Below, piece after piece: positions 3,302 through 62,837 of a DNA stretch of 62,837 bases. The position numbers were made by a program, and so were the translations under genes. The notes under the pieces were generated by a model. It did not search any database. It was not told where the DNA came from and saw nothing but the letters and a program-made list of their open reading frames with translations. The stretch's first letter is position 1; every line of letters begins with the position of its first letter. The stretch comes from an uncultured bacterium (GTDB lineage Bacteria > Patescibacteriota > Patescibacteriia > UBA1558 > GWA2-36-10), in the NCBI GenBank assembly GCA_903855135.1, contig CAINYB010000022.1, positions 1 through 62,837 on the forward strand, given 5' to 3'.

Positions 3302-3859
3302 TTAAAGACCTAATTTTTCCCTTAAAATTTGGCTAATTTTAGCCACTGTTTCGGCTAATTGGCCGTCTATATTAGTTATTTGGTAGTCAAAAGCAGTTTT
3401 TTGGGTCATTTCTTTTTGCGCTGCTTGCCAACGCTTATCTTTTATTTCTTGAGCCAAAGGCCTTGCGTCAATACGATTTTTTAAAATTTCCAGACTATCG
3501 GGTTGGATAAAAAAGCTTAAACTTGCTGGAAATTGTTGTTTAATATTTTTAGCTCCTTGGACATCGATGTTTAGTAAAACAGGTGATTCCTCAAGGATAC
3601 TTAAAAGTTCGGCTTTGCCAGTACCATAAAATTCACCATAAACTTCAGCCCATTCTATCAACTGTTTATTTTTGATTAGTTCTTGAAATTCAGCTTTGGT
3701 GACATGGTGAATAAGCTTGTCTTCTTGGGACCAGGATCTGGCTTCGCGTGTCGTATAAGTGACAGCTGACTTGAGAGCGGGAAATAGTTTGAAAATTTCT
3801 TTGGCCACTGTAGTTTTACCAACTGCTGACGGGCCAGTGATAATAACTAAATTTTTCAT
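3302..3859 (-). CDS. gmk: guanylate kinase
   Basis: 185 aa; P-loop GPSAVGKTT, YTTREAR, EWAEVYGEFYGT. Confidence 0.85.
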   Translation of the reverse strand: MKNLVIITGPSAVGKTTVAKEIFKLFPALKSAVTYTTREARSWSQEDKLIHHVTKAEFQELIKNKQLIEWAEVYGEFYGTGKAELLSILEESPVLLNIDVQGAKNIKQQFPASLSFFIQPDSLEILKNRIDARPLAQEIKDKRWQAAQKEMTQKTAFDYQITNIDGQLAETVAKISQILREKLGL

Positions 3860-4925: not shown

Positions 4926-5882
4926 TCAAATATTATAAAATGGGTCAATATAGACTTTTTTTAAGTCTTCGCTTGAACTTTGTAAGGCACTAAGACGATG
5001 CTCTTCGATAGCGGGGGCTATCTGAGTGGCAAGTGCGTCTAATAAAATCTGATTGTTGGCACTAAAATCTCGGCCACTTAATTTATCAGCTAAAATAATT
5101 AAGCCCAAAGTTTTTTTGCCTAAATTAATCGGCGTGATCAAAAGCGAATTGCTGATATAAGGTAATGTTAAATATTCTTTTGACCAATCACTTTTATTAA
5201 AAATTTTAGTTTTTTTGTTTTCAATGATTTTAGCTAAAAAAGTATCATTGAGTAAATCAAAATTGGCACCAATATTTATTTTGTAGCCAAGAGCATATTG
5301 AACAGTGGCTTTGTTATTAATATTTGAGACCGTGCAGAATAAAGCTTTTTTAACAGGGATAACTTTTAAGATAATTGCTGTCAAATGTTTGCTGATTTCA
5401 TTCATAGTATCATACAAAGCGATTATTTTACCGCCAGCAAACAAGGTGACTAGTTTATTATTAGAATGATCTAAACGATTTTTTAAATTAATGGCAATAT
5501 TATGATAAATTTTTTGGGCTATCTCGGGATATTTTTTTTGAATAGTAAACCAATGATAAATAGATAGCTCTAAGGTCGTTAAGTTTGGACTCGCGACTAT
5601 CAAGGTATGTTGGTGTAAACTATTTTTTTGCAAAAAAGCCATTTCTCCTAAAAAATCGCCAGTGCGAAACATAGCGATAGTTTCTTGATGATCAGCGATA
5701 TCAGTATTGAGTTTCACTAGGCCATCTTTGATGATGACTAGTTTAGTTCTGGTTTTGCCTTTGATAAATATTTTTTCTTCATTATTATAATTTTTTTCTA
5801 TCAAAAAATCACTGACAATTTTTATTTCTTTATTAGTCAAGTTGTCAAATAAAGACAAATTATTTAGAGAAAAATCATTCAT
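4926..5882 (-). CDS. cyclic-nucleotide-binding domain protein with C-terminal GAF-like domain
   Basis: 318 aa; cNMP-binding signature GDFLGEMAFL in the N-terminal half. Confidence 0.55.
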   Translation of the reverse strand: MNDFSLNNLSLFDNLTNKEIKIVSDFLIEKNYNNEEKIFIKGKTRTKLVIIKDGLVKLNTDIADHQETIAMFRTGDFLGEMAFLQKNSLHQHTLIVASPNLTTLELSIYHWFTIQKKYPEIAQKIYHNIAINLKNRLDHSNNKLVTLFAGGKIIALYDTMNEISKHLTAIILKVIPVKKALFCTVSNINNKATVQYALGYKINIGANFDLLNDTFLAKIIENKKTKIFNKSDWSKEYLTLPYISNSLLITPINLGKKTLGLIILADKLSGRDFSANNQILLDALATQIAPAIEEHRLSALQSSSEDLKKVYIDPFYNI

Positions 5883-5951: not shown

Positions 5952-6986
5952 TTATCTTTGAGTAGTGCTTAAATGAGCTAAAGCTGTTGGTTCGTCAATT
6001 AAGTTTTTTTCTAGCAACTCACGAATATTAAAGTCCATGGAGAACATGCCGACATCAGCTGAAGTCTGGATGACAGAGCGCATTTGGGGTATTTTATTTT
6101 CGCGGATAATATTGGCAATGGCTGGTGTGTTGATTAAAATCTCTCGGACAGCCACTCGACCACCACCAACTTTTGGTAATAATTTTTGAGAAATAACCCC
6201 ACTTAATGACATCGAAAGCTGAAGTCTAACTTGAGCTTGTTGGTGTGGAGGAAAAACATCGATGATACGATCAATGGTTTGAGAAGCATTGTGCGTATGC
6301 AAAGTAGCTAAAACTAAATGTCCAGTTTCGGCCAAAGTAATAGTTGCAGCAATAGTTTCCAAGTCACGCATCTCGCCGACCATGATGACATTTGGGTCTT
6401 GTCTTAAGACGTGTTTTAAAGCATCTTGAAAAGTATTCATATCAGTACCCAATTGTCTTTGTTTAATAATACTTTTGACTGGTTTAAAGATATATTCGAT
6501 CGGATCTTCTAGGGTGATGATATTAGCAAAGCGTAGTTCATTGATTCTCTGAATCATAGCTGCTAGTGTAGTTGATTTACCACAACCGGTTGGACCAGTG
6601 ACCAAAATCAAGCCTTGATCTTTCTCGATCAAACGATGGACGATCGGTGGCATGCCAAGATCTTCTAAAACCGGTACATCGGTGGAAATAACACGAGCTA
6701 CTAAACCAACATTATCTTTTTCCCAAAATAAATTGACACGATAGCGAGAAAAACCAGTGATTTCATAAGAGATATCTAGTTCACGATTTTCTAAAAATTC
6801 TTTTTTTTGTTTTTCCGTGATAATACTGAAAACTAATTTTTCCGTTTCCGTGCGACTTAAAGTTTCAGTGTTTGGCATCACTCTTAGCTCACCATCGATA
6901 CGTAAGATAGGAGGTTTGCCGACAATCAAATGCAAGTCAGAAGCCTTGGCTTGAGTCGCAACTTTAAATAAATCATTAATGGTCAT
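5952..6986 (-). CDS. pilT: type IV pilus retraction ATPase PilT
   Basis: 344 aa; Walker A GPTGCGKSTT, GEMRD, ETGHLVLATLHT motifs. Confidence 0.85.
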   Translation of the reverse strand: MTINDLFKVATQAKASDLHLIVGKPPILRIDGELRVMPNTETLSRTETEKLVFSIITEKQKKEFLENRELDISYEITGFSRYRVNLFWEKDNVGLVARVISTDVPVLEDLGMPPIVHRLIEKDQGLILVTGPTGCGKSTTLAAMIQRINELRFANIITLEDPIEYIFKPVKSIIKQRQLGTDMNTFQDALKHVLRQDPNVIMVGEMRDLETIAATITLAETGHLVLATLHTHNASQTIDRIIDVFPPHQQAQVRLQLSMSLSGVISQKLLPKVGGGRVAVREILINTPAIANIIRENKIPQMRSVIQTSADVGMFSMDFNIRELLEKNLIDEPTALAHLSTTQR

Positions 6987-7213: not shown

Positions 7214-7738
7214 TTATTTGACTAAAATATTTTGCGTATTTTTTTGATAGTTTAAATACATTTGATACGCGCCAAAGAAAAAAGTGCTGTACACAAAATT
7301 ACTTAACAAAGTATTTTTAAAAAAAGGAATAGCTAGTAAATAGCTTTGTTGTAAACCAGTAATATCAGCGCTATACCAGGTGCCAAAAAACCAGACTGCC
7401 CAATTGGTCAGCACAAAAAATAAAATAGCCGATAGCAAAGAGTAGCCCAAGGCTAGGCTATAAGAGTAAGATTTTTTTAAATATTGGCCAGCTAGAATAG
7501 TGATAAACAAAGATAAATACACCGTCAGCATCACACCTGACTGATAAAAGCCTAAAAATAAATCAGAAATAAATAAGGCTAGCAGTGGTAAATAGCGTAG
7601 ACGCCAGTCAGTGCTCAAAAAACCAATAAATAGAGCTAAAGCAAAAATAGGAGAAAAATTGGCTGCATGAGGAATCAGTCGACTGACAATGATCAGTAGG
7701 CTAAGAAAAATCATAGTAAATATTTTTTGCTTTGACAT
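7214..7738 (-). CDS. polytopic membrane protein, possibly ECF-type S component (cobalamin uptake suggested by context only)
   Basis: 174 aa, 5-6 TM helices, LIPHAANFSPI motif; immediately downstream of DUF4430 and cobO genes. Confidence 0.4.
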   Translation of the reverse strand: MSKQKIFTMIFLSLLIIVSRLIPHAANFSPIFALALFIGFLSTDWRLRYLPLLALFISDLFLGFYQSGVMLTVYLSLFITILAGQYLKKSYSYSLALGYSLLSAILFFVLTNWAVWFFGTWYSADITGLQQSYLLAIPFFKNTLLSNFVYSTFFFGAYQMYLNYQKNTQNILVK

Positions 7739-9698: not shown

Positions 9699-9968
9699 AT
9701 GACAAAATTGATTCAAGTCAAAAACATTGAGATCGGCCTCAGTGTTTTGAAAGAAATGGCTATTGATCTTGAGCTCGAAGCCCAAGGTCTTAGCGGCGAA
9801 ACAGCATCAGAAGCTTGGACTCGACACCATCGTGTCAATGCGGTGGTTTTGAGATGTGAGTCATTACTACGAGCCGGGCAGACAAGCGATGTTCACACTT
9901 TATTGTTTGCTGAAGGCATCAATGTCACTGGACGTATTAAACAACAGCAGAGGAGTCCAAGGCGATGA
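9699..9968 (+). CDS. ORFan, member of small paralogous family (island 1)
   Basis: Start moved to ATG 9699 (AGAGGAG SD); 89 aa; C-terminal AVVLRC..LL....V..LL...GI motif shared with the next two ORFs. Confidence 0.55.
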   Translation: MTKLIQVKNIEIGLSVLKEMAIDLELEAQGLSGETASEAWTRHHRVNAVVLRCESLLRAGQTSDVHTLLFAEGINVTGRIKQQQRSPRR

Positions 9969-49017: not shown

Positions 49018-49046
49018 TTGACAAATTTTATGATTAGTTGTAGGTT
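49018..49046 (+). promoter_or_regulatory. sigma70-like promoter TTGACA-17-TAGGTT
   Basis: Read directly upstream of island 4. Confidence 0.5.
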
Positions 49047-49184
49047 ATTATATTATGATCTTTCACAATTTCACATAGATTCCAATGAGAGTATATCTCT
49101 ATTGGAGGAAACGAAAAGCAGGGATCATGCACGTGGTTGCTTTGATTGGCGCTGTGTGTCTCATAAAGGGAAAGGAGAAGCCCC

Positions 49185-49988
49185 ATGAAACGCTTGGATT
49201 CGTTGAAAGCCTGGCTTCAGGGCCCTGAGCCAGGCAGCCCAGGACCAGTAGGACATCTCAAGTCCGTGCTGATCATGGTGCTCTTGTGCATCGCTGCCGC
49301 CATTTTCAACGGTGGTTGTGGCAATCAGGGGCCGTTGGACAGCAACCAGCAGGAGAGCCTCAGTTCATTCGGTCAGTCCAACTTTGACGGAGGAATGTCC
49401 TCCGATCTGGCGCTCGGTTTGCCGACCGAGGTTTACCAGCACGACCAGATCTGCCGGGAGTTTCTGCCGGTGATGATCGCTTACCTGGAGAAGCCGGCCA
49501 GCACAAGAGAGGAGGTGTGGTCCGACTTGGCTGGTTTGTTCGAGGAACGTTATGGTGTGGGCACCTGGCCCAGCCAACTGCTCATCGAGCAACTCTCGGA
49601 GGATGGTTCATCGGTACATTTGCCGGGCGTGCCCAGCAATCTTCGGGACATCATTGGTCGCATCAATGGGCTAGAGCAGCCTTTCAATCAGGTGCTTTCC
49701 CGAGGTGAACCGATGGCGTTGCTCGAGAAGGAGATCAACAAGTACGTCAAGGTAAATCGAGGTCAAGACCTCGGTTATCTATATGTATTGTTGAGTTCCA
49801 TGTCCCTCTACCGCAACAACCCTGACTACGCCTGGTTCGTTGACGAGTTCAGCGAACCTGTGGCGATAACCGGGATACCCGACTGGGCTCTGTGCGACAC
49901 CGCCGGTGCAGCCATTGGTGGTGGTGCTGGTGCGGCAGCATGTACTCTCGGGTACTTCATCGGCCGTTGGTGGGACGAGCATTATTGA
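49185..49988 (+). CDS. high-GC ORFan, probable lipoprotein with Gly-zipper C-terminus (island 4)
   Basis: 267 aa; AAGGAG SD; hydrophobic segment ending FNGGC; C-terminus GAAIGGGAGAAACTLGYFIG. Confidence 0.55.
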   Translation: MKRLDSLKAWLQGPEPGSPGPVGHLKSVLIMVLLCIAAAIFNGGCGNQGPLDSNQQESLSSFGQSNFDGGMSSDLALGLPTEVYQHDQICREFLPVMIAYLEKPASTREEVWSDLAGLFEERYGVGTWPSQLLIEQLSEDGSSVHLPGVPSNLRDIIGRINGLEQPFNQVLSRGEPMALLEKEINKYVKVNRGQDLGYLYVLLSSMSLYRNNPDYAWFVDEFSEPVAITGIPDWALCDTAGAAIGGGAGAAACTLGYFIGRWWDEHY

Positions 49989-50048
49989 TATTGCTCGTTA
50001 GCTCAGGCAATACGTTCATTCACTGACACAGATTTTTAGGAGGATCTC

Positions 50049-50408
50049 ATGCGACGCAACACGATCGTCACCTGTCTGGCCAGCATTTTTTTGTTGGTCA
50101 ACCTGGCCATGGCCCAGACCACTGGTCTGTCCTTCGACACGAACAAGCCGACCATGACTTCGACGGAGGTCTTCAATCACGTCTACAACGACATGGTCAC
50201 CGAATACGGTCCGACCTTCAAGGACGACTTGAGGGCAGACTGCCTGATCGGAGCCGGGCCGATGCTCGATGAGATGTCGAATCGTCTCGATGCCTACAAC
50301 ATCGAGGGCATCATCCAGGCCGAGGGTCTCCGCGTGACCTGGGGGCAGGTTGGCAAATGCGCACGGGTGGCATGTGCACTCATCATCGGCATGATCGTCG
50401 GTTGTTGA
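50049..50408 (+). CDS. high-GC ORFan, secreted (island 4)
   Basis: 119 aa; AGGAGGA SD; signal peptide ..LVNLAMA|QT; hydrophobic C-terminus CALIIGMIVGC. Confidence 0.55.
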   Translation: MRRNTIVTCLASIFLLVNLAMAQTTGLSFDTNKPTMTSTEVFNHVYNDMVTEYGPTFKDDLRADCLIGAGPMLDEMSNRLDAYNIEGIIQAEGLRVTWGQVGKCARVACALIIGMIVGC

Positions 50409-50445
50409 ACCACAAGGTCTACAACGGCATGAACGCTGAATACAG

Positions 50446-50486
50446 GCCCCGGCTTCTCACGAGAGAAGTCGGGGCTCAATTTTTTA
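50446..50486 (+). terminator. intrinsic terminator GCCCCGGCTTCTC-ACGA-GAGAAGTCGGGGC + T-run
   Basis: Read directly after island 4. Confidence 0.75.
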
Positions 50487-50563
50487 TAAATTTAAAAACA
50501 GCCAAATAAATTTTATTAAACGCCCTACGGGCTGAAAGCATAAAATTTATTTGGCTGTTTTGA

Positions 50564-50860
50564 TTAAAGCAAATCCACCACTAAAACGCCTTCACCACCT
50601 TGGGCAAATTTTCCTAAAGATACTTTAGCTATACTAGGATCTTGACTCAAATATTTTTGTAAGAGTGGTTTAATGACAGCGCCATTTTTTGAATGCTTGC
50701 CTTGGCCGACAATAAAAGCTATTTTAGTATAATTATTTTTTTGTGCATCTTTGATAAAATCATCAGCTAAACTATAAATTTTTTGTGGACTTAAAATACC
50801 CAAATCATGAAAATCAAGTTCAGCTTGGATTTTATTTAAATTTTCGTATTTATTAGCCAT
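50564..50860 (-). CDS. Smr domain protein
   Basis: 98 aa; LDFHDLG...GQGKHS pattern of Smr/MutS2 C-terminal nucleases. Confidence 0.7.
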   Translation of the reverse strand: MANKYENLNKIQAELDFHDLGILSPQKIYSLADDFIKDAQKNNYTKIAFIVGQGKHSKNGAVIKPLLQKYLSQDPSIAKVSLGKFAQGGEGVLVVDLL

Positions 50861-51651
50861 TATAATTTTTGATAATAAAATTCTGCTGCTAAATCACTTT
50901 GGAAATGCAAAGCTTTTTTTATTTGTGCGACTTGTGCGCCATTTTGTTTTAAGTAATAGGCTAAAGTATGGCGTAAAACTTGAGGATTAAGGCGTAAAAC
51001 ATCAGACATCTGATGACTGTATTTTTCAATGATACGTTCAACTGATCTAACAGACAAAGCTTGGTTTTTATTTTTGCCAGCGTGGTCAAAATTGATAAAT
51101 AAATATGGTGATTCGTCTTTTCTTTTTTGTAAATATTTTAGTAAATAAAATTTAGTAGTATTATTTAATTTGGCTTCTTGTTTTTGGTAAGAAATTATAT
51201 TTTTATTTAAATTTAGATCTTTTTTTTCTAGAGAGACGATAGTTTTAGCTTTAAAACCACTGTAGTATAAAATTTCTAATAAAATTTTATCACGCAAGCT
51301 GAGCAAATCACTGGGGTGGGGGAGAAGATTGAGATATTCGCTTAATTGTTTTTTAGTGAGGACATGAATGTTTTGTTTTTCGATAGACAAGAGCGTGATT
51401 TGCTGTTTTTGTTTGCTAAATTTTAAGTAGTCGTTGATGACGCTCAAACGTAAATTAATAGTAGCGATTTTTTTGTATTTATGTAGCAAAAATTCACGAT
51501 ATTTTTCACAATTTTTTGGCGTTATTTTTTCTTTATCTAAATAAGCTAAAAAATGTTTCAAGTGCCAGAGATAAGTGACTTGACTACTTAAAGATATTTT
51601 TTTAGTGTGTAAATATTTTTGGTATTTTTTTATATTTTCTGCTTGTGTCAT
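50860..51651 (-). CDS. tyrosine recombinase (Xer/phage-integrase family)
   Basis: 263 aa; box II VLRHTLAYYL, ..LHF......EFYY catalytic Tyr region; first catalytic Arg position apparently Lys (SGFKAKT) by hand alignment. Confidence 0.75.
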   Translation of the reverse strand: MTQAENIKKYQKYLHTKKISLSSQVTYLWHLKHFLAYLDKEKITPKNCEKYREFLLHKYKKIATINLRLSVINDYLKFSKQKQQITLLSIEKQNIHVLTKKQLSEYLNLLPHPSDLLSLRDKILLEILYYSGFKAKTIVSLEKKDLNLNKNIISYQKQEAKLNNTTKFYLLKYLQKRKDESPYLFINFDHAGKNKNQALSVRSVERIIEKYSHQMSDVLRLNPQVLRHTLAYYLKQNGAQVAQIKKALHFQSDLAAEFYYQKL

Positions 51652-51787: not shown

Positions 51788-51911
51788 GGCCTTACTTATT
51801 ATTAATTCCCCCAAGCTTGGTTTAAGCCTTATTTCGTCTAACTTGTCTTGCCGTAGCTTTAGCGAAGGCAGAAAATTAGCTTAAACTCGGTGGGTGGAGC
51901 AAAGGAAAATT

Positions 51912-58276: not shown

Positions 58277-58888
58277 TTACTTAGATTTTTTAAGACCTTT
58301 TTTTATTATTTTCGTCATTAATTCATTCTTGCCAGACATTCCTAAAATGCAAGCCTTGAAATAATCAGAGTCTTTGGTTTTGCTCCAGTCGATAGGATCA
58401 TAACCCAAGTTAACTACCAGCAGGTCTAAGAATAAACGAATAGTTCTACCATTACCCTCACGAAAAGGATGAATAGCATTATATTCATTATGGATTAAAG
58501 TAAGTTTTTTAGATATTGTATCTTTATTATCTTTACTATTTGGTAGTTTCTTTTTTAACAAAAGTTCAAATTTTTGCAAAGTTTGATCAATGTATTTTAC
58601 AGAAGCAAACAACATGCCATCTTTCGAAATATCTACATTTCTTACTTTCCCAGCCCAAGAGTATAGAGTGTGAAAAAAATATTTATGAATAGAAAATAAT
58701 AAAGAAAGGTCAAATTTGACCTCATCGTCTTTTAGTAATTCAAAAAAATGTGTGTAAGTATCTGCTAGTAATAAAGTTTCAGCTTCTTCTAATTTTTTCT
58801 TATCCTTGATGCCCAGTTTATTTTCTAAAACACCATTGTCAATACCAGCTTTCTTATTACTAACTTGATACCGAGAATGCCCGATCAT
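58277..58888 (-). CDS. Fic family protein (class I toxin-like)
   Basis: 203 aa; canonical Fic motif HPFREGNGRTIR. Confidence 0.85.
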   Translation of the reverse strand: MIGHSRYQVSNKKAGIDNGVLENKLGIKDKKKLEEAETLLLADTYTHFFELLKDDEVKFDLSLLFSIHKYFFHTLYSWAGKVRNVDISKDGMLFASVKYIDQTLQKFELLLKKKLPNSKDNKDTISKKLTLIHNEYNAIHPFREGNGRTIRLFLDLLVVNLGYDPIDWSKTKDSDYFKACILGMSGKNELMTKIIKKGLKKSK

Positions 58889-59015
58889 AGTTTTTTAAAG
58901 TTTGAATAAGTTGTTTATTTTTTTTAGCCTTACTAAAACTTAAACCTTCCATTTTGGAAGACTGTGAAATAGCTTTATTTATCTTATTTGTAGTTATTTT
59001 AAGCTTATTTTTCAT
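58860..59015 (-). CDS. VbhA-like Fic antitoxin (51 aa)
   Basis: Hand-translated MKNKLKITTNKINKAISQSSKMEGLSFSKAKKNKQLIQTLKNYDRAFSVSS; contains the inhibitory (S/T)xxxE(G/N) motif SSKMEG; overlaps the fic start by 29 nt. Confidence 0.55.
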   Translation of the reverse strand: MKNKLKITTNKINKAISQSSKMEGLSFSKAKKNKQLIQTLKNYDRAFSVSS

Positions 59016-59081
59016 AAGTTAATATTTTTAATATATCTATATATTAACACATTTTTTTGACTTTTTCAATGCACTAAAATA

Positions 59082-59239
59082 GCCAAATATTTCACCTAAC
59101 AGACCAGCGTATGAGAAGTTGACCGTGAAGTAGCTATGATAAAATTATATCATCATAGCTACGAACGGGCAATTTGCGAAAAACAGCTCCTTTTAGAGCT
59201 GTTTTTTCTCATACGCGGTGTTGTGTGATGTATTTTGGC
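59082..59239 (+). repeat. long imperfect palindrome, element A (158 bp)
   Basis: Arms GCCAAATATTTCACCTAACAGACCAGCGTATGAGAA / TTCTCATACGCGGTGTTGTGTGATGTATTTTGGC; inner hairpins 59130-59162 and 59184-59201. Confidence 0.7.
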
Positions 59240-59257
59240 AGTTGTATTATGAAATAA

Positions 59258-59902
59258 TTATTTTGAATCATTAAATATTTTAGCGACCAATTCTTTACGA
59301 GCATAGAATGCACGTGTGATTGGTCTTCTTTTGCCAGTTTTAGGATTTATTCCACCTTGTCCTTTTGTTCTAGCTTGGATCCACTTACCATCTTTGCCGG
59401 TTAAACTACTAAAGCCTTTCTTAATTAGTTTTGCTCTAATAAAATCATAGTCAGCTTTTATCTCTTTTATTAAATCATCAGTTTCAGAAAAATCTAAGCT
59501 AGTAACCTTTAGTAATTCGGCATTATCAGAATTTTTTCCATGCCACATGACCGCGCAAAAAACAATGGATTTCAATTTTTCCCACACATGACTTTTAAAG
59601 AATTCCTGTTCTTTCAATTCTTTTTGGTTAATCATTGTGATGGCCATTGTTTCCTTTGGTATTAGCTTATCTTTCACATGATAAAAACTTACAGATTTTA
59701 ATTCATAAGACAGACCATTCGGAGCCTTTGAAACATTGTTTTCCAAGCCAGCTAAAAGTTCCAAAATTAAACCTTTCCAACCCTTATTTTGTTTGCCAGT
59801 TTCATAGGTTGTTATTTTTAGCTTTTTAGCCAGCTGTCTTAAATCTTGGCCAATGTATTTTTTTAAATTTTTGATAGCTGTTGCTCTAGTAACGATTTTC
59901 AT
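59258..59902 (-). CDS. MutH/Sau3AI-family type II restriction endonuclease
   Basis: 214 aa; NKGWKGLILELLAG....YELKS, WIQARTKG and RAFYARK align by eye with the E. coli MutH blocks DKGW.G.LLE..LG, ELKT, YLQIRPK, RGFYLKK. Confidence 0.7.
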   Translation of the reverse strand: MKIVTRATAIKNLKKYIGQDLRQLAKKLKITTYETGKQNKGWKGLILELLAGLENNVSKAPNGLSYELKSVSFYHVKDKLIPKETMAITMINQKELKEQEFFKSHVWEKLKSIVFCAVMWHGKNSDNAELLKVTSLDFSETDDLIKEIKADYDFIRAKLIKKGFSSLTGKDGKWIQARTKGQGGINPKTGKRRPITRAFYARKELVAKIFNDSK

Positions 59903-59911
59903 AAATTTATT

Positions 59912-60700
59912 TTAAGATTTTGGTAAATCATTTAATCTTTTTATGGATAAGTCTAAATATTTTTTTTCTAAATCAATACCAATAAATTTTCTATCATTTA
60001 AGACAGCTGCTAAACCAGTAGTGGAGGAGCCTGTAAATGGATCCAGTATCAAATCACCCTTGTCTGTGCTGGCTAAAATTATTCTCACTAATAAATCCAT
60101 TGGTTTTTGCGTGGGATGCTTACCAAATTTTTTTTCATCTTTCTTGGGCGGATATATTGCCCAGACACTTCTCATTTGAGTGTTTGGTTTTTTCAAGAAA
60201 TCACTTTGCCAGTCACCATCTTTCATCGCTTTATAGTTGAATTTATGTTTTCCTTTTTTATCTTTTCTTGCCCAGATTAAAGTCTCGTGACTGGCAGTAA
60301 AAAAACGACAACTTAAGTTTGGTGAAGCGTTTGGTTTGAACCAAGCAACATCATTTAGAATATGAAAGTGATTAATTTGTAGGGCAAATCCGCATTGGTA
60401 AATAGAGTGGTATGTGCCACTAATCCAAATAGTTCCACCAGGCTTTAAAACTCTATGGCATTCTTTAATCCAAGAAAGATGAAATTCAAAGTCTTTTTTA
60501 CAACCATTACTAACATCCCATTCACCTTTGTTAACACTTACCATTTTGCCGGCGTGCACAGTAAAGCCACCATTTGAGAGTAAGTATGGTGGATCAGCAA
60601 AAATCATGTCAACGGAGTTTTCTTTTGAATTAGCTAAAAACTCTAAAGAATTGGCATTATATAAGGCAAATTTCCCTTTTTTGTAGTATGGTTTTATCAT
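59912..60700 (-). CDS. beta-class N6-adenine/N4-cytosine DNA methyltransferase
   Basis: 262 aa; IFADPPY near the N-terminus, ILDPFTGSSTTG SAM motif near the C-terminus. Confidence 0.85.
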   Translation of the reverse strand: MIKPYYKKGKFALYNANSLEFLANSKENSVDMIFADPPYLLSNGGFTVHAGKMVSVNKGEWDVSNGCKKDFEFHLSWIKECHRVLKPGGTIWISGTYHSIYQCGFALQINHFHILNDVAWFKPNASPNLSCRFFTASHETLIWARKDKKGKHKFNYKAMKDGDWQSDFLKKPNTQMRSVWAIYPPKKDEKKFGKHPTQKPMDLLVRIILASTDKGDLILDPFTGSSTTGLAAVLNDRKFIGIDLEKKYLDLSIKRLNDLPKS

Positions 60701-60778
60701 GATTCAAAATAATTATTTAATAGAAAATAGAGGTATTTTCCACCTCTATTATATCATAAAGTAATTATACAACAAACT

Positions 60779-61012
60779 GCCAAAATATTTCATACAACAG
60801 ACAAGCGTATGCGACGTCCCGAAACGAGCTTTGCGGTAAAATTGTGCGGAGCACACCGCAAGGGCGAGTGAGGGGTGTAGGCGCAAGCTTACACTTCTTA
60901 TAGGATAAAATTAAAAGTGCCTAAGCTAATTTAAGCACCTTTAACTTTAAAATTCAACTAAACATTAAGTGTAAGCTAAGCCGCATACGCGGTGTTATGC
61001 GTTGTTTTGCCA
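60779..61012 (+). repeat. long imperfect palindrome, element B (234 bp)
   Basis: Arms GCCAAAATATTTCATACAACAGACAAGCGTATGCG / CGCATACGCGGTGTTATGCGTTGTTTTGCC; second stem 60881-60896 with 60967-60981; inner hairpin 60831-60861. Confidence 0.7.
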
Positions 61013-61063
61013 AATAAATAATTACATTATTAGAGCACTTTTGAAATTTTTCGGCCACGGGCC

Positions 61064-61092
61064 TTGACTTTTTGGCTATGGTATGATAATAT
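61064..61092 (+). promoter_or_regulatory. sigma70-like promoter TTGACT-17-TAATAT
   Basis: Read directly upstream of ORF 61149. Confidence 0.55.
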
Positions 61093-61148
61093 CTAAAGTC
61101 ATGATATTTACTCGTGGCGAAGACGAACCTTAAAAGGAGAAGCAAACC

Positions 61149-61538
61149 ATGGCAACCGACGGACCCACTCCACCCCCCTGTGATCAGGAAATTTTTCAGA
61201 AAGGCCAGCCCGTGGCCGCTCTCGATGCCTCGTCCAACGCGGCCGAGAACTGGGTGCAGGCAGTGGCCAAGAAGGCCCGCGCCCGCGTTGACTGGCACTA
61301 CAGTGGCGGCATCGCGCAGGTGCTCCATCTAGGTGACGACGAGAGCCGAGCCCGTGTGGAAGTGGCGATGGACGAGCTCGAGCCTACCCTCAAGGGTACG
61401 GTCATGCGACGCTACAGGTCCGGCGAGTCCGGCCTGTACAGGCAGGGTGTCACTCAGACCCCTCCCGGAGCCGTCGCTTCGTTCATGGACCCGTTCACGG
61501 GCGAGGCGACTTACATGGTCAAACCCGATCAGAAGTAG
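61149..61538 (+). CDS. high-GC ORFan (island 5)
   Basis: 129 aa; AAGGAGAAG SD; G/C-rich third codon positions; terminator GGCCCG..(ATGTTC-TTCG-GAACAT)..CGGGCC at 61558-61597. Confidence 0.55.
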   Translation: MATDGPTPPPCDQEIFQKGQPVAALDASSNAAENWVQAVAKKARARVDWHYSGGIAQVLHLGDDESRARVEVAMDELEPTLKGTVMRRYRSGESGLYRQGVTQTPPGAVASFMDPFTGEATYMVKPDQK

Positions 61539-61655
61539 GCGCGTTGCCCAACCCCAAGGCCCGTACTGGATGTTCTTCGGAACATTACAGGCGGGCCTTC
61601 TTCATTTAAAAAATTTAAAAAGGTCTCAATTGAAAATATTTTCAATTATTTGTTT

Positions 61656-62267
61656 GGCAAAATTGCGTATAACAGACCACAGTATGCGAAGTCACGAATG
61701 AACGTGGCGGTAAAATTTTGCGAAGCAAACCGCCTAAGTGAATGAGTGATTTGGGTGAAGTTAAAAAATAAATTTTACTTTGCTAAAGCCTTATCTTTCC
61801 CAAATTGCATACAATGTTCTAAGTAGTCTTCAGCTTCTGATGAATCTATAAGTTCAACGGCAAAAACCTCATTATTATCTTTTATTATTTGTAGGTTTTC
61901 TTTTACTAATTCTTTTTTGAGCTTATCAGCTAGGTCGGGTTCTTGCAATTTAGTAATTATATAAGAACCAAGCATCACATCTTCTCCAATCTTTAATATA
62001 AACATCGTTGAGTCGGTTGCAAGGTAAGTTAGATAATCATAAAAAGAACGATAAGCTTCACTAGCCATATTTGTTTCGTCCTCATCTGAAATATCTTTGA
62101 AGTCAGCGTTAAAAGATTGGTTTCTGTCACCAAGACTATTAAAATGTGCTGGCATTGGTCTATTTGCCGACATCACTATTTCTTTTACCCGTTCTATTAT
62201 TTCTCTAGACATATATAAAATTTATTTTTTTAACTGAACCGCATACTGGGTGTTGGTCGCTGTTTCC
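61656..62267 (+). mobile_element. long imperfect palindrome, element C (612 bp), enclosing a 145-aa ORF at its tip
   Basis: Arms GGCAAAATTGCGTATAACAGACCACAGTATGCG / CGCATACTGGGTGTTGGTCGCTGTTTCC; second stem GAAGTTAAAAAATAAATTTTA / TAAAATTTATTTTTTTAACTGAA flanks the ORF. Confidence 0.65.
61775..62212 (-). CDS. ORFan, acidic 145-aa protein inside element C
   Basis: ORF track; no family recognised; no SD. Confidence 0.5.
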   Translation of the reverse strand: MSREIIERVKEIVMSANRPMPAHFNSLGDRNQSFNADFKDISDEDETNMASEAYRSFYDYLTYLATDSTMFILKIGEDVMLGSYIITKLQEPDLADKLKKELVKENLQIIKDNNEVFAVELIDSSEAEDYLEHCMQFGKDKALAK

Positions 62268-62276
62268 TAAATTATT

Positions 62277-62804
62277 TTATAAAAGTTTTTTTGGCAGATA
62301 TTTTTTAAAGATTTTTTTAAATTTTTCCTGATTTCCATGACTTGGAAATGGGATAAATTCCTTATTCAAAACTTTAATTTTTTCTTTTTTTAATTTAGGT
62401 TGAAAAATTGTAAAAACATTCTTTTTTATAATTATTATTGGAGTGTTTTTAGAAATTAAAGTTTTTATTTCATTAGTTTTATTTTCTAAATTATCACAAA
62501 TTTGTTCATTTTTGTTTTTGTTACTTTTTTTATTTATTGGTTTGTCTGTTGCGTCAATTAAGTAAAAACCTTTGTTTTGAAATTTTTTAAGATATTTTTC
62601 TTTATCTCCTTTTTTGTATTCTTTTTTGAAATCAGGAAAAATTGCATCCATAATTGCTTTAAAAAGAAAATCATACCTTTCTTCTTTTGGGTTATAAAAA
62701 AATCTTAAAGATCCATTTTTGGATAGAGGAGGAGATTCTGCTAAGAAGAGACATTTTCTGACGGTAGGTTTATATGTTGCTCTTAATTTTTTTATTGTAT
62801 CCAT
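62277..62804 (-). CDS. hypothetical protein, possibly uracil-DNA-glycosylase-superfamily-like
   Basis: 175 aa; LFLAESPP near the N-terminus and PFPSHGN near the C-terminus loosely resemble UDG motifs A and B; weak. Confidence 0.35.
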   Translation of the reverse strand: MDTIKKLRATYKPTVRKCLFLAESPPLSKNGSLRFFYNPKEERYDFLFKAIMDAIFPDFKKEYKKGDKEKYLKKFQNKGFYLIDATDKPINKKSNKNKNEQICDNLENKTNEIKTLISKNTPIIIIKKNVFTIFQPKLKKEKIKVLNKEFIPFPSHGNQEKFKKIFKKYLPKKLL

Positions 62805-62817
62805 AAGTGTAAAAAAT

Positions 62818-62837
62818 TTAGGAAATGGCGTCTAACA
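62818..62837 (+). repeat. start of a fourth palindromic element (D), cut by the window end
   Basis: TTTAGGAAATGGCGTCTAACA resembles the left arms of A-C up to the AAC box. Confidence 0.35.

Follow-up and report, generated by a model that had tools for sequence, protein, structure and literature searches.

Palindromes bounding gene cassettes beside a Xer-like recombinase point to an integron-like platform in Patescibacteria

At the right-hand end of a 62,837-nt stretch of DNA from an uncultured patescibacterium (assembly GCA_903855135.1, contig CAINYB010000022.1; the whole stretch is hereafter the window, and strands are those of its forward sequence), three imperfect palindromes, A, B and C, and the start of a fourth, D, separate what appear to be gene cassettes. 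Probably, these palindromes serve as recombination sites in a chromosomal platform for gene cassettes, integron-like in operation yet assembled from different parts. Sequence comparison across loci supports a common site architecture with covarying stems, a strand bias, a defined crossover point, a conserved attI-like site, cassette polymorphism and a phylum-wide linkage to a recombinase. The defining feature of integrons is an integrase with an extra domain, which is regarded as the innovation that enabled folded single-stranded sites to recombine. Here, the genetic signatures of the integron lifestyle are found with a Xer-like recombinase that has no such domain, which opens the step from Xer to IntI to direct tests.

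Together with the start of D, elements A, B and C form one family with covarying stems and a single orientation, and within the 62.8-kb window neither arm motif recurs outside these sites at 0-1 mismatch. The left or long arm consists of AAC, 6 nt, a 9-nt core and AAGT; the right or short arm consists of the complementary core (core'), GGT and GTT. Pairing of the cores forms what we call the L stem. The cores are perfectly complementary within an element and differ among A (GCGTATGAG), B (GCGTATGCG) and C (CAGTATGCG), and the left arm has three additional bases (AAC-AG-ACC-A-core versus core'-GGT-GTT). A first-pass annotation, made from the letters alone, had located these arms in one orientation, and they do lie at the places that it gave (AAC/GTT at 59098/59220 in A, 60796/60994 in B and 61671/62252 in C, and the AAC of D at 62834); it was also right both about the compensatory core changes and about the left strand always carrying the additional bases.

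Each element constitutes a hairpin unit, U1. Element A (59098..59222, +) holds no open reading frame (ORF) and consists of AAC (59098-59100), the spacer AGACCA, the core (59107-59115), a loop, core' CTCATACGC (59208-59216), GGT and GTT (59220-59222). Element B (60796..60996, +), also without an ORF, has AAC at 60796, the spacer AGACAA, the core at 60805-60813, core' CGCATACGC at 60982-60990, GGT and GTT at 60994-60996. Element C (61671..62254, +) has AAC at 61671, the spacer AGACCA, the core at 61680-61688, core' CGCATACTG at 62240-62248, GGT and GTT at 62252-62254, and it carries cargo: the 145-aa ORF that had been placed within it (61775..62212, -) lies in its loop. Element D (62834..62837, +) is cut by the window end after AACA…; in overlapping contigs (L001 9085-9971; L numbers denote contigs and loci throughout) it has the core GCGGATGTGAG and encloses a 244-aa ORF. 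ORFs inside U1 recur in an element H described below and in elements of L090, L092, L099 and L109. U1 ranges from 69 to 1,022 nt in size and about half of the units hold an ORF. A copy of element A in L092 is 92 % identical, with a compensated core (GCGTGTGAG/CTCACACGC) and different flanks.

Between the hairpin units lie cassette bodies, U2. The first (59223..60795, -) carries a type II restriction-modification (R-M) pair, consisting of a MutH-like endonuclease (59258..59902, -) and an N6/N4 methyltransferase (59912..60700, -); the presence of such a pair between A and B had been proposed and is borne out by Pfam and PADLOC matches. The second (60997..61670, +) contains a 129-aa, 62 %-GC ORF in reverse orientation (61149..61538) with its own promoter-like site (TTGACT-17-TAATAT). 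The third (62255..62833, -) contains a 175-aa ORF (62277..62804) that had been suspected to resemble a uracil-DNA glycosylase; searches of families and of the Protein Data Bank (PDB) returned no match and lend this no support.

To follow the array past the window end, the 175- and 145-aa ORFs were looked up as exact proteins, which returned 14 contigs. L002 matches 6,690 nt of the window at 100 % identity, and L001, from a different sample, overlaps the window and extends ~10 kb beyond its end. The order in L001 past the window is element D, a 119-aa cassette, element F, a 193-aa cassette, an attI-like site (…CAGT-GTT-AGGTGAAAT) and a divergent 289-aa tyrosine recombinase (PF00589/PF13495) located ~2.4 kb past position 62837. 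The earlier statement that no recombinase lies nearby was thus an effect of the window edge, and a search beyond that edge, which the first-pass annotation had advised, produced a tyrosine recombinase that the IntI models do not class as integron-type. The attI-like site lies exactly 81 nt upstream of the recombinase ATG in 11 loci (recombinases 64-100 % identical). Its recombinase-side half is conserved among loci (A[CGA]TGT.T.T..G.ACCT.-TTGAC) and the similarity ends at the triplet, after which each locus has a different cassette end. In L001, a candidate outward promoter (sigma-70-like, TTTACA-17-TAAAAT) points across the attI-like site into the array, as does a promoter-like counterpart in L113 (TTTACT-17-TAAAAT). 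In L101, which encodes a 67 %-identity relative of the recombinase, ~140 nt (352-490) are inserted between the attI/promoter region and the recombinase start.

The distal end of the array has a matching feature. A chromosome-side R arm (…AATAGCCAAATATTTCACCT; 59075..59097, +) precedes the first AAC, and this ATTTCACCT-AAC is the same R arm as that found before the attI-like site in L001, L090 and L097. This arm probably once formed the other half of the attI-like site. To its left, the arm profiles and covariance model described below detected neither a short arm nor a structured module. Several contigs (the starts of L114 and L115) break off at the attI-like site, ~100 nt upstream of the recombinase, and P0059 consists of 24 contigs, mostly < 5 kb. 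These breaks fit array heterogeneity within populations, and the array explains assembly breaks at its locus.

The recombinase resembles Xer proteins more closely than integron integrases. It passes the NCBIfam XerA model NF040815 (recomb_XerA_Arch; 250.1 bits, cut-off 220), fails the IntI model TIGR02249 (196.9 bits, cut-off 265) with a match that is split in two, and scores 130 bits against a cut-off of 435 with PRK15417. The best PDB match is XerA (4a8e, 172 bits), followed by IntI4 (2a3v, 140) and XerD (88). In the alignment with VchIntIA (2a3v), residues 191-209 of the recombinase (18 aa) stand opposite IntI residues 179-238 (59 aa); by this alignment, the IntI-specific insert is absent. 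The protein aligns end to end with Pyrococcus abyssi XerA with no large gaps, and its C-terminal …SPL tail aligns with IntI4 and not with XerA. The best 120 homologues listed are 53-100 % identical, and the named ones among them all come from Patescibacteria. A profile search of genome contigs with the recombinase alignment found only relatives of <=44 % identity from other phyla, the peptide patterns being over-general.

The outermost GCCAAA… and …TTTTGGC sequences had been thought to pair within each element. A repeat search of the window contradicts this, since the strongest relevant inverted repeats link the right flank of A with the left end of B (I6), B with C (I2) and C with D (I7); the ends pair with those of the neighbour across the gene. 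The right end of B is TTTTGCC, and the two outer ends of this element are direct repeats, both GCCAAA on the + strand. The R-M body is bounded by ~21-nt inverted ends, GTGTGATGTATTTTGGCAGTT / AACTGCCAAAATATTTCATAC (I6, 88 % complementary; pairing string ||:|||.:||||). The ends of the 129-aa body, ATGCGTTGTTTTGCCAAATAAATAATT / AATTATTTGTTTGGCAAAATTGCGTAT, pair over ~27 nt (I2, 84 % complementary), and those of the 175-aa body, GGTCGCTGTTTCCTAAATT / AATTTAGGAAATGGCGTCT, pair mutually and not with the ends of C (I7).

This cross-gene pairing, here termed the R stem, was quantified over 31 distinct cassettes from 10 arrays. In the first 22 cassettes, 10.6 of 12 positions are paired between the ends of one cassette, compared to 8.1 for the two ends of the same palindrome and 8.0 for swapped partners. 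R stems are usually ~20 nt long, have partners up to 4.8 kb apart and contain imperfections at fixed distances from the triplet, namely at positions 1 (G·T), 7 (mismatch) and 8 (G·T). A variant triplet, GAT/ATC, is concordant between cassette ends in 31 of 31 cases and discordant between palindrome arms in 10 of 34. End pairing across the gene is the classic signature of an integron cassette, in which sequence past the crossover belongs to the next cassette. The first-pass annotation had described the triplet boxes as non-canonical, a remark that concerned the wobble-paired partner side. On the ORF strand of the long-arm side, A, D, F, G, H and the attI-like site conform to GTTRRRY (GTTAGGT, GTTAGAC), and B and C (GTTGTAT, GTTATAC) do not.

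Natural variants indicate where exchange takes place. Element F lies upstream of the 119-aa cassette in L001 and L007; in L002, L003 and L004 its place is taken by element H (core GGATTGCCG, enclosing a 203-aa ORF), followed by further cassettes. L001 and L004 show 0 mismatches over the 2,464 nt distal to the triplet and ~40 % identity immediately beyond it, and both variants were seen in at least two independent samples each. Comparing samples for cassette presence or absence, as had been suggested, therefore reveals a sharp switch at the triplet. Because the variant triplet base travels with the cassette (31/31) and not with the palindrome, these alignments place the exchange point after the second base of the long-arm AAC (AA|C). 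The crossover in integrons is likewise at A|C of AAC (PMC5027507).

A second type of evidence comes from a GC-rich, non-coding mini-cassette of 155-165 nt. It has L and R stems of its own (the L stem being GGGTAATCC/GGATACCC) and bears the triplet variant GAT/ATC; some other cassettes also carry ATC/GAT instead of AAC/GTT. The mini-cassette was inserted at least four times in L099 (~823-980, ~2597-2754, ~7490-7647 and a cut copy at 1-10), with one copy at the attI-like site, and is found in L100 and in L102 (~2064-2221, ~9765-9922). It occupies the attI-like site in four loci (L098, L099, L100 and L102). Every copy sits between flank'-AA and C-spacer-core, with junctions AAC|…AT|C, and neither these junctions nor those of the variants show target-site duplications.

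Elements were searched for with nhmmer arm profiles and a covariance model, R1, which replaced an 8-mer AAC/GTT detector that was swamped by AT-rich noise. Applied to related loci, as had been recommended, R1 found further copies solely in arrays: 33 matches in 262 kb, each on the recombinase strand and upstream of the recombinase, seven of them in loci outside the training set (L109, L111 and L113). Long-arm matches at E < 0.01 are all upstream of the recombinase on its strand, and so are the short-arm matches except that of L101. No elements were found elsewhere in the window or in the 10-kb downstream flanks. This distribution bears on the conservative alternative raised in the first pass, that the palindromes are plain repeats scattered between genes, such as miniature inverted-repeat transposable elements (MITEs), repetitive extragenic palindromic sequences or enterobacterial repetitive intergenic consensus sequences. 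While the elements are intergenic imperfect palindromes of 120-230 nt and one 155-165-nt non-coding copy has multiplied, copies outside the arrays are absent from the 262 kb apart from the L101 short arm and the partial E > 0.3 matches, all 33 model matches lie within arrays on one strand, target-site duplications are missing, insertions occurred solely at the AAC of other elements or at attI, and the ends pair across the gene. The probability of a plain repeat family is thus close to nil.

The pairing data also carry a strand signal. L stems are paired in 124 of 126 cells (98 %) despite 13 distinct 9-nt cores (36 elements, 10 arrays), as compared to 59 % Watson-Crick pairs, or 67 % counting G·T, when core partners are swapped. 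An A·C cell on one strand is a G·T pair on the opposite strand, and the non-Watson-Crick cells of the R stems comprise 62 G·T versus 5 A·C on the + strand of the window. Element A folds at -35.7 kcal/mol on the + strand (z = -10.5 versus shuffles) and at -33.0 on the - strand; when both strands were folded, a check proposed in the first pass, the + strand was the more stable in 5/5 comparisons. This strand is opposite to most cassette ORFs and hence the 'bottom' strand in integron terms, on which canonical attC sites show the same G·T enrichment (PMC5027507). As calculated from sequence, the G·T bias and folding energies point to folding of one strand. Moreover, because a double-stranded site needs the long arm only, the universal presence of a complementary shorter partner arm argues that the hairpin itself would be the substrate.

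The uniform strand signal is difficult to reconcile with a shufflon-like system of multiple inversion, in which the recombinase would flip gene segments between inverted repeats and so switch their expression. Such a system would explain why the recombinase adjoins consecutive segments with inverted repeats at their ends and why some ORFs are reverse-oriented. However, inversion would flip the wobble direction, which is uniform in 31/31 cassettes, reversed ORFs included, with only 5 A·C cells. In addition, the natural variants differ in cassette content and not in orientation, and the segments are unrelated complete genes. We regard a shufflon as extremely unlikely.

Directly after the L core, 20 of 24 distinct elements contain a module of ~75 nt. 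It opens with GAAGT and a stem holding tandem GA/GA loops; a further stem leads to a TAWAAT bulge, after which a short stem, a GRA triloop and …ATTTGG follow. The inner hairpin that had been recognized in the first pass is present and forms part of this larger module, for which RNAalifold predicts 17 pairs; 13 show compensatory changes, and a single G·T pair does not vary. Module cells are paired at 93.8 % versus 73.8 % in shuffles (0/500) and 30-43 % when the partners are slid. In the window, R1 detects the module in A (59113..59183, +; GAAGT…stem…TAAAAT bulge…stem…ATTTG; 46.3 bits, E = 6e-7), B (60811..60886, +; 73.8 bits, E = 1e-12) and C (61686..61760, +; 91.4 bits, E = 2e-16), and folded element C displays the tandem GA/GA internal loops. 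We speculate that the module could be a site for an accessory protein or act in single-stranded form as a signal for priming or transcription start. The TAWAAT bulge found no support as a regular double-stranded promoter, since the promoter scan of the window array gave 16 matches versus 14.1 expected, which is not above chance. A scan of viral contigs with a 17-mer of the module returned one chance match in a GC-rich coding region.

Strong covariation, the presence of G·U-type pairs on a single strand, and the GRA triloop and tandem GA loops of the module would also be expected if the elements were structured RNAs (cis-regulatory elements, small RNAs, or terminators and insulators) and the pairing reflected RNA folding. 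The Rfam (15) scan at gathering scores yielded only tRNAs in the window and nothing in six arrays, and an E-value scan of 56-62.8 kb gave chance matches only. Furthermore, the folding strand is antisense to most ORFs, the R-stem partners are as far as 4.8 kb apart, and RNA folding leaves the triplet breakpoints, the repeated insertions and the fixed link to recombinase and attI unexplained. While the module alone could act as RNA, such an origin for the elements is very unlikely.

The same architecture adjoins recombinases of 56-89 % identity in other Patescibacteria. Beside the 82, 73, 64, 61, 60 and 56 % homologues, upstream elements are accompanied by accessory genes reading away from the recombinase, and in homologous loci the other side of the recombinase consists of housekeeping genes. 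The loci include a Nomurabacteria metagenome-assembled genome, 0.8-Mb contigs labelled 'Patescibacteria group' and contigs whose recombinase is named Komeilibacteria. Between arrays, the elements alone are similar and the cargo is different; it comprises type II and type III R-M systems, a type I/IIG-like methyltransferase, PDC-S06, a Ppl-like ATPase, a diversity-generating retroelement (DGR) reverse transcriptase and small enzymes, and is largely anti-phage defence. The 129-aa ORF of the window had been called an ORFan, which is incorrect: it belongs to a family with 155 homologues of 48-94 % identity, every named one from Patescibacteria. The 175-, 145-, 244-, 119-, 193-, 203- and 103-aa cassette proteins have no family or PDB match.

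Other recurrent cassette features were observed. High-GC reverse small ORFs with long leaders are present in L001 (193 aa), L099 (142 aa), L090 (195 aa) and L092 (192 aa). Two more conserved GC-rich non-coding motifs, …GGGCGAAGGGCAGAGGGGATTAAGGGGTGAATGCCCGAGCCC… and …CCGAAGCGTAGCGGAGGAAACATC.ACTCCTGCCGACAGGCAGGTTCCCC…, without an Rfam match, lie at both ends of large defence cassettes (L090 ~3610-3660 and ~6670-6725; L092 ~965-1040, ~3340-3400 and ~5240-5290; L094 ~2790-2850, ~5515-5570 and ~6320-6370; L099 ~5665-5720). The DGR of the Nomurabacteria array, consisting of the reverse transcriptase and a bAvd accessory gene, occupies the attI-proximal spot (L090 8455-9839 / L091).

Based on these findings, we infer a single-stranded substrate, its recombination chemistry and this recombinase as the catalyst. 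On the gene strand, the layout is a divergent recombinase, a candidate outward promoter, an attI-like double-stranded site ending in G|TT, and cassettes that mostly read away from it. Each cassette combines a hairpin unit, U1 (AAC…GTT), with a body, U2 (GTT…AAC). When the + strand becomes single-stranded, the U2 ends would form the ~20-bp R stem closing on AAC:GTT, followed by an asymmetric internal loop with 5-6 nt on the AAC arm versus 1-3 nt opposite, and the U1 ends would form an L stem of 9-11 bp. The abutting R and L stems would create a duplex of ~30 bp, the size of Xer and attC sites. An excised single-stranded circle would then be a dumbbell in which either loop is able to carry genes, and such a two-loop form may be why ORFs are found both between and inside the palindromes. 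The recombinase would bind the R and L stems and cut the folded strand at AA|C, with attI or a further element as partner in the exchange, and the junction would be resolved by replication, as in integrons and in the integration of CTXphi by XerCD.

A related explanation casts the recombinase as the cell's Xer-type resolvase of chromosome dimers and the attI-like site as dif; the cassettes would then exploit Xer, either in the manner of integrative mobile elements exploiting Xer (IMEXs) or, like Acinetobacter pdif modules, as modules between oppositely oriented double-stranded Xer sites. XerCD is known to recombine the folded single-stranded site of CTXphi. The best family and structure matches are XerA (NF040815, 4a8e), the IntI insert is missing, and every ORF lies between inverted sites, with U1 and U2 reassorting at both triplets as in pdif modules. 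A Xer-related subgroup of candidate phyla, 'Cand', has been assumed to supply Xer function (PMC8138268). Against a dif site, GC skew is positive both before (+0.09 to +0.17) and after the array (+0.09 to +0.18; 72.8 kb, one genome), and the locus therefore coincides with neither a skew switch nor a terminus. The idea of a terminus, which came from a cumulative-skew plateau at the array start, was dropped because positive skew resumes in the 10-kb extension. Double-stranded recognition explains neither the pairwise covariation of 13 variable cores nor the 62:5 split of mismatches by strand, and the two arms differ systematically by 3-4 nt, so that neighbouring sites are not equivalent inverted copies. 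A second tyrosine recombinase in the same genome, of 263 aa (50860..51651, -), could be its Xer. If Xer acts on folded DNA, this explanation overlaps with an integron-like platform and differs from it in the identity of dif and in double-stranded sites; with those two components, we consider it unlikely.

Several points weigh against an integron-like platform. All of the evidence is computational and comes from metagenome contigs. The recombinase is without the IntI I2 or additional domain that canonical integrases use for extrahelical bases and that is required for integron integrases (PMC9668308), so that activity on folded DNA rests on analogy with XerCD and CTXphi. The additional 3-4 nt are on the AAC arm of the wobble-rich strand, a geometry that is disfavoured for canonical attC (PMC5027507), and hairpin loops of up to 1 kb should fold poorly. 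The promoters in L001 and L113 are candidates by consensus match only. In L101, a lone short arm (…CGCATACGCGGTGATAGTTGAAGT; 2620-2651) is found on the 'wrong' side, 1.3 kb downstream of the recombinase. Finally, U1 and U2 reassort between genomes in sequence comparisons: L090 and L092 share the same U2 start (96 % over 120 nt) after unrelated U1s, and L099 and L092 share a whole U1 (85 % over 681 nt) before unrelated U2s. These independent combinations imply exchange at the short-arm triplet too, over evolutionary time, possibly through occasional recombination of the other strand, an outcome not foreseen by a single-crossover model.

As in integrons, a divergent tyrosine recombinase adjoins an attI-like site, with a candidate promoter directed outward, and the cassettes, mostly without an evident promoter, form an array running in one direction. 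The sites are imperfect palindromes of conserved structure and variable sequence, with an AAC/GTT triplet and crossover at AA|C; most cassettes read GTTRRRY along the strand of their ORF, and G·T pairs are more frequent on the opposite strand. Cassette starts are complementary to the beginning of their own site, attI-proximal cassettes vary among strains, and the cargo comprises defence, toxin-antitoxin (TA) and R-M genes. In contrast, the recombinase is without the ~41-aa IntI insert, scores 197 versus 265 bits with the IntI model and is closest to XerA. The R stem is ~20 bp here as opposed to 7 in attC. Canonical attC has extrahelical bases on the arm opposite AAC and an unpaired spacer of 5-6 nt on each arm (PMC5027507), whereas the sites here have an asymmetric internal loop (5-6 versus 1-3 nt) and additional bases on the AAC arm. 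The hairpin unit spans 69-1,022 nt and often contains an ORF, unlike the 57-141 nt of attC with no gene inside; the 75-nt module has no attC counterpart; and the host is a patescibacterium. The first-pass suggestion of attC-like sites therefore stands with regard to boundaries, attI-like site, recombinase, AAC/GTT crossover, strand-specific folding and cargo. With an attI-like site, an array on one side of it, discrete cassettes and exchange at the triplet, the system resembles an integron; we do not file it as one, as its integrase domain, extrahelical-base geometry and site size differ.

The nearest mechanistic precedent, by analogy, for a domain-less Xer-type enzyme acting on folded DNA is the integration of CTXphi. 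IMEXs of this type similarly use a Xer-family recombinase without the IntI insert on a folded single-stranded site with an imperfect centre, with one-strand exchange and resolution of the junction by replication, a mechanism that would be shared by the arrays here. They differ in that the arrays are long orders of single-gene cassettes and not phage genomes, have no phage replication module, and use a target that adjoins the recombinase gene rather than the replication terminus. Acinetobacter pdif modules are likewise bounded by inverted sites shared by neighbours, with alternating site orientation, independent reassortment and cargo of TA and resistance or defence genes. However, pdif sites are conserved 28-bp double-stranded XerC-spacer-XerD sites on plasmids, while the arms here are variable (13 cores), unequal and covarying, with strand-biased wobble, in a chromosomal array tied to one recombinase and attI. 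With the archaeal XerA and 'Cand' recombinases (Smyshlyaev et al. 2021), the enzyme shares a pass of the NCBIfam XerA model and a gap-poor XerA alignment. XerA differs in resolving chromosome dimers at a single dif site. We know of no cassette array or hairpin sites for XerA.

A broader hypothesis, for and against which we see equal weight, is that these arrays constitute a phylum-wide, previously unrecognised sister system to integrons. It would combine a XerA/IntI-related recombinase without I2, folded single-stranded 'dumbbell' cassettes with cargo in both loops, its own site geometry and a module possibly priming second-strand synthesis or transcription; it would be either a living Xer-IntI intermediate or an independent invention, and the main route of defence-island assembly in these tiny genomes. 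A literature search found no description of integron-like arrays or attC-like sites for the candidate phyla radiation (CPR)/Patescibacteria, with incomplete coverage that makes this absence of evidence only, and term searches within key integron papers turned up neither CPR nor Patescibacteria. The arrays suggest that structure-specific cassette capture extends further than current detectors reveal, because IntegronFinder requires the IntI domain. The arrays would also provide a mechanism for the gain and exchange of defence systems in reduced CPR genomes, and a second, differently shaped structure-specific recombination site for engineering.

Directly outside the last element, a Fic toxin (58277..58888) and an overlapping 51-aa ORF occupy 58277..59015 (-). 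Of the Fic/VbhA-like pair that had been proposed here, the Fic part is supported by Pfam and by PADLOC (PDC-S04, E = 1e-54), and the 51-aa partner has no match; no element lies left of this pair according to the arm profiles and covariance model. A promoter-like TTGCCC-17-TATAAT with an upstream TG is present inside A (59144-59172, -) and points toward the Fic/51-aa pair. Farther away, 1.4 kb of the window (49030-50490) have 53 % GC within a 34 %-GC genome. The two ORFs located there (49185..49988 and 50049..50408) begin with hydrophobic N-termini and gave no Pfam match. This segment is ~450 nt from the 263-aa tyrosine recombinase. Between that recombinase and rpsO, a weak match to the R-arm plus AAC motif (TATTTCGTCTAACT, E = 3.4; 51830-51843) is probably due to chance. 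The right edge of the 53 %-GC segment is marked by a perfect 20-bp palindrome (50497-50562, AACAGCCAAATAAATTTTAT…ATAAAATTTATTTGGCTGTT) that ends in AAC…GTT. The arm profiles did not detect it, its GCCAAATAAAT is similar to the cassette ends of B and C, and it may represent a bidirectional terminator or the relic of an R stem.

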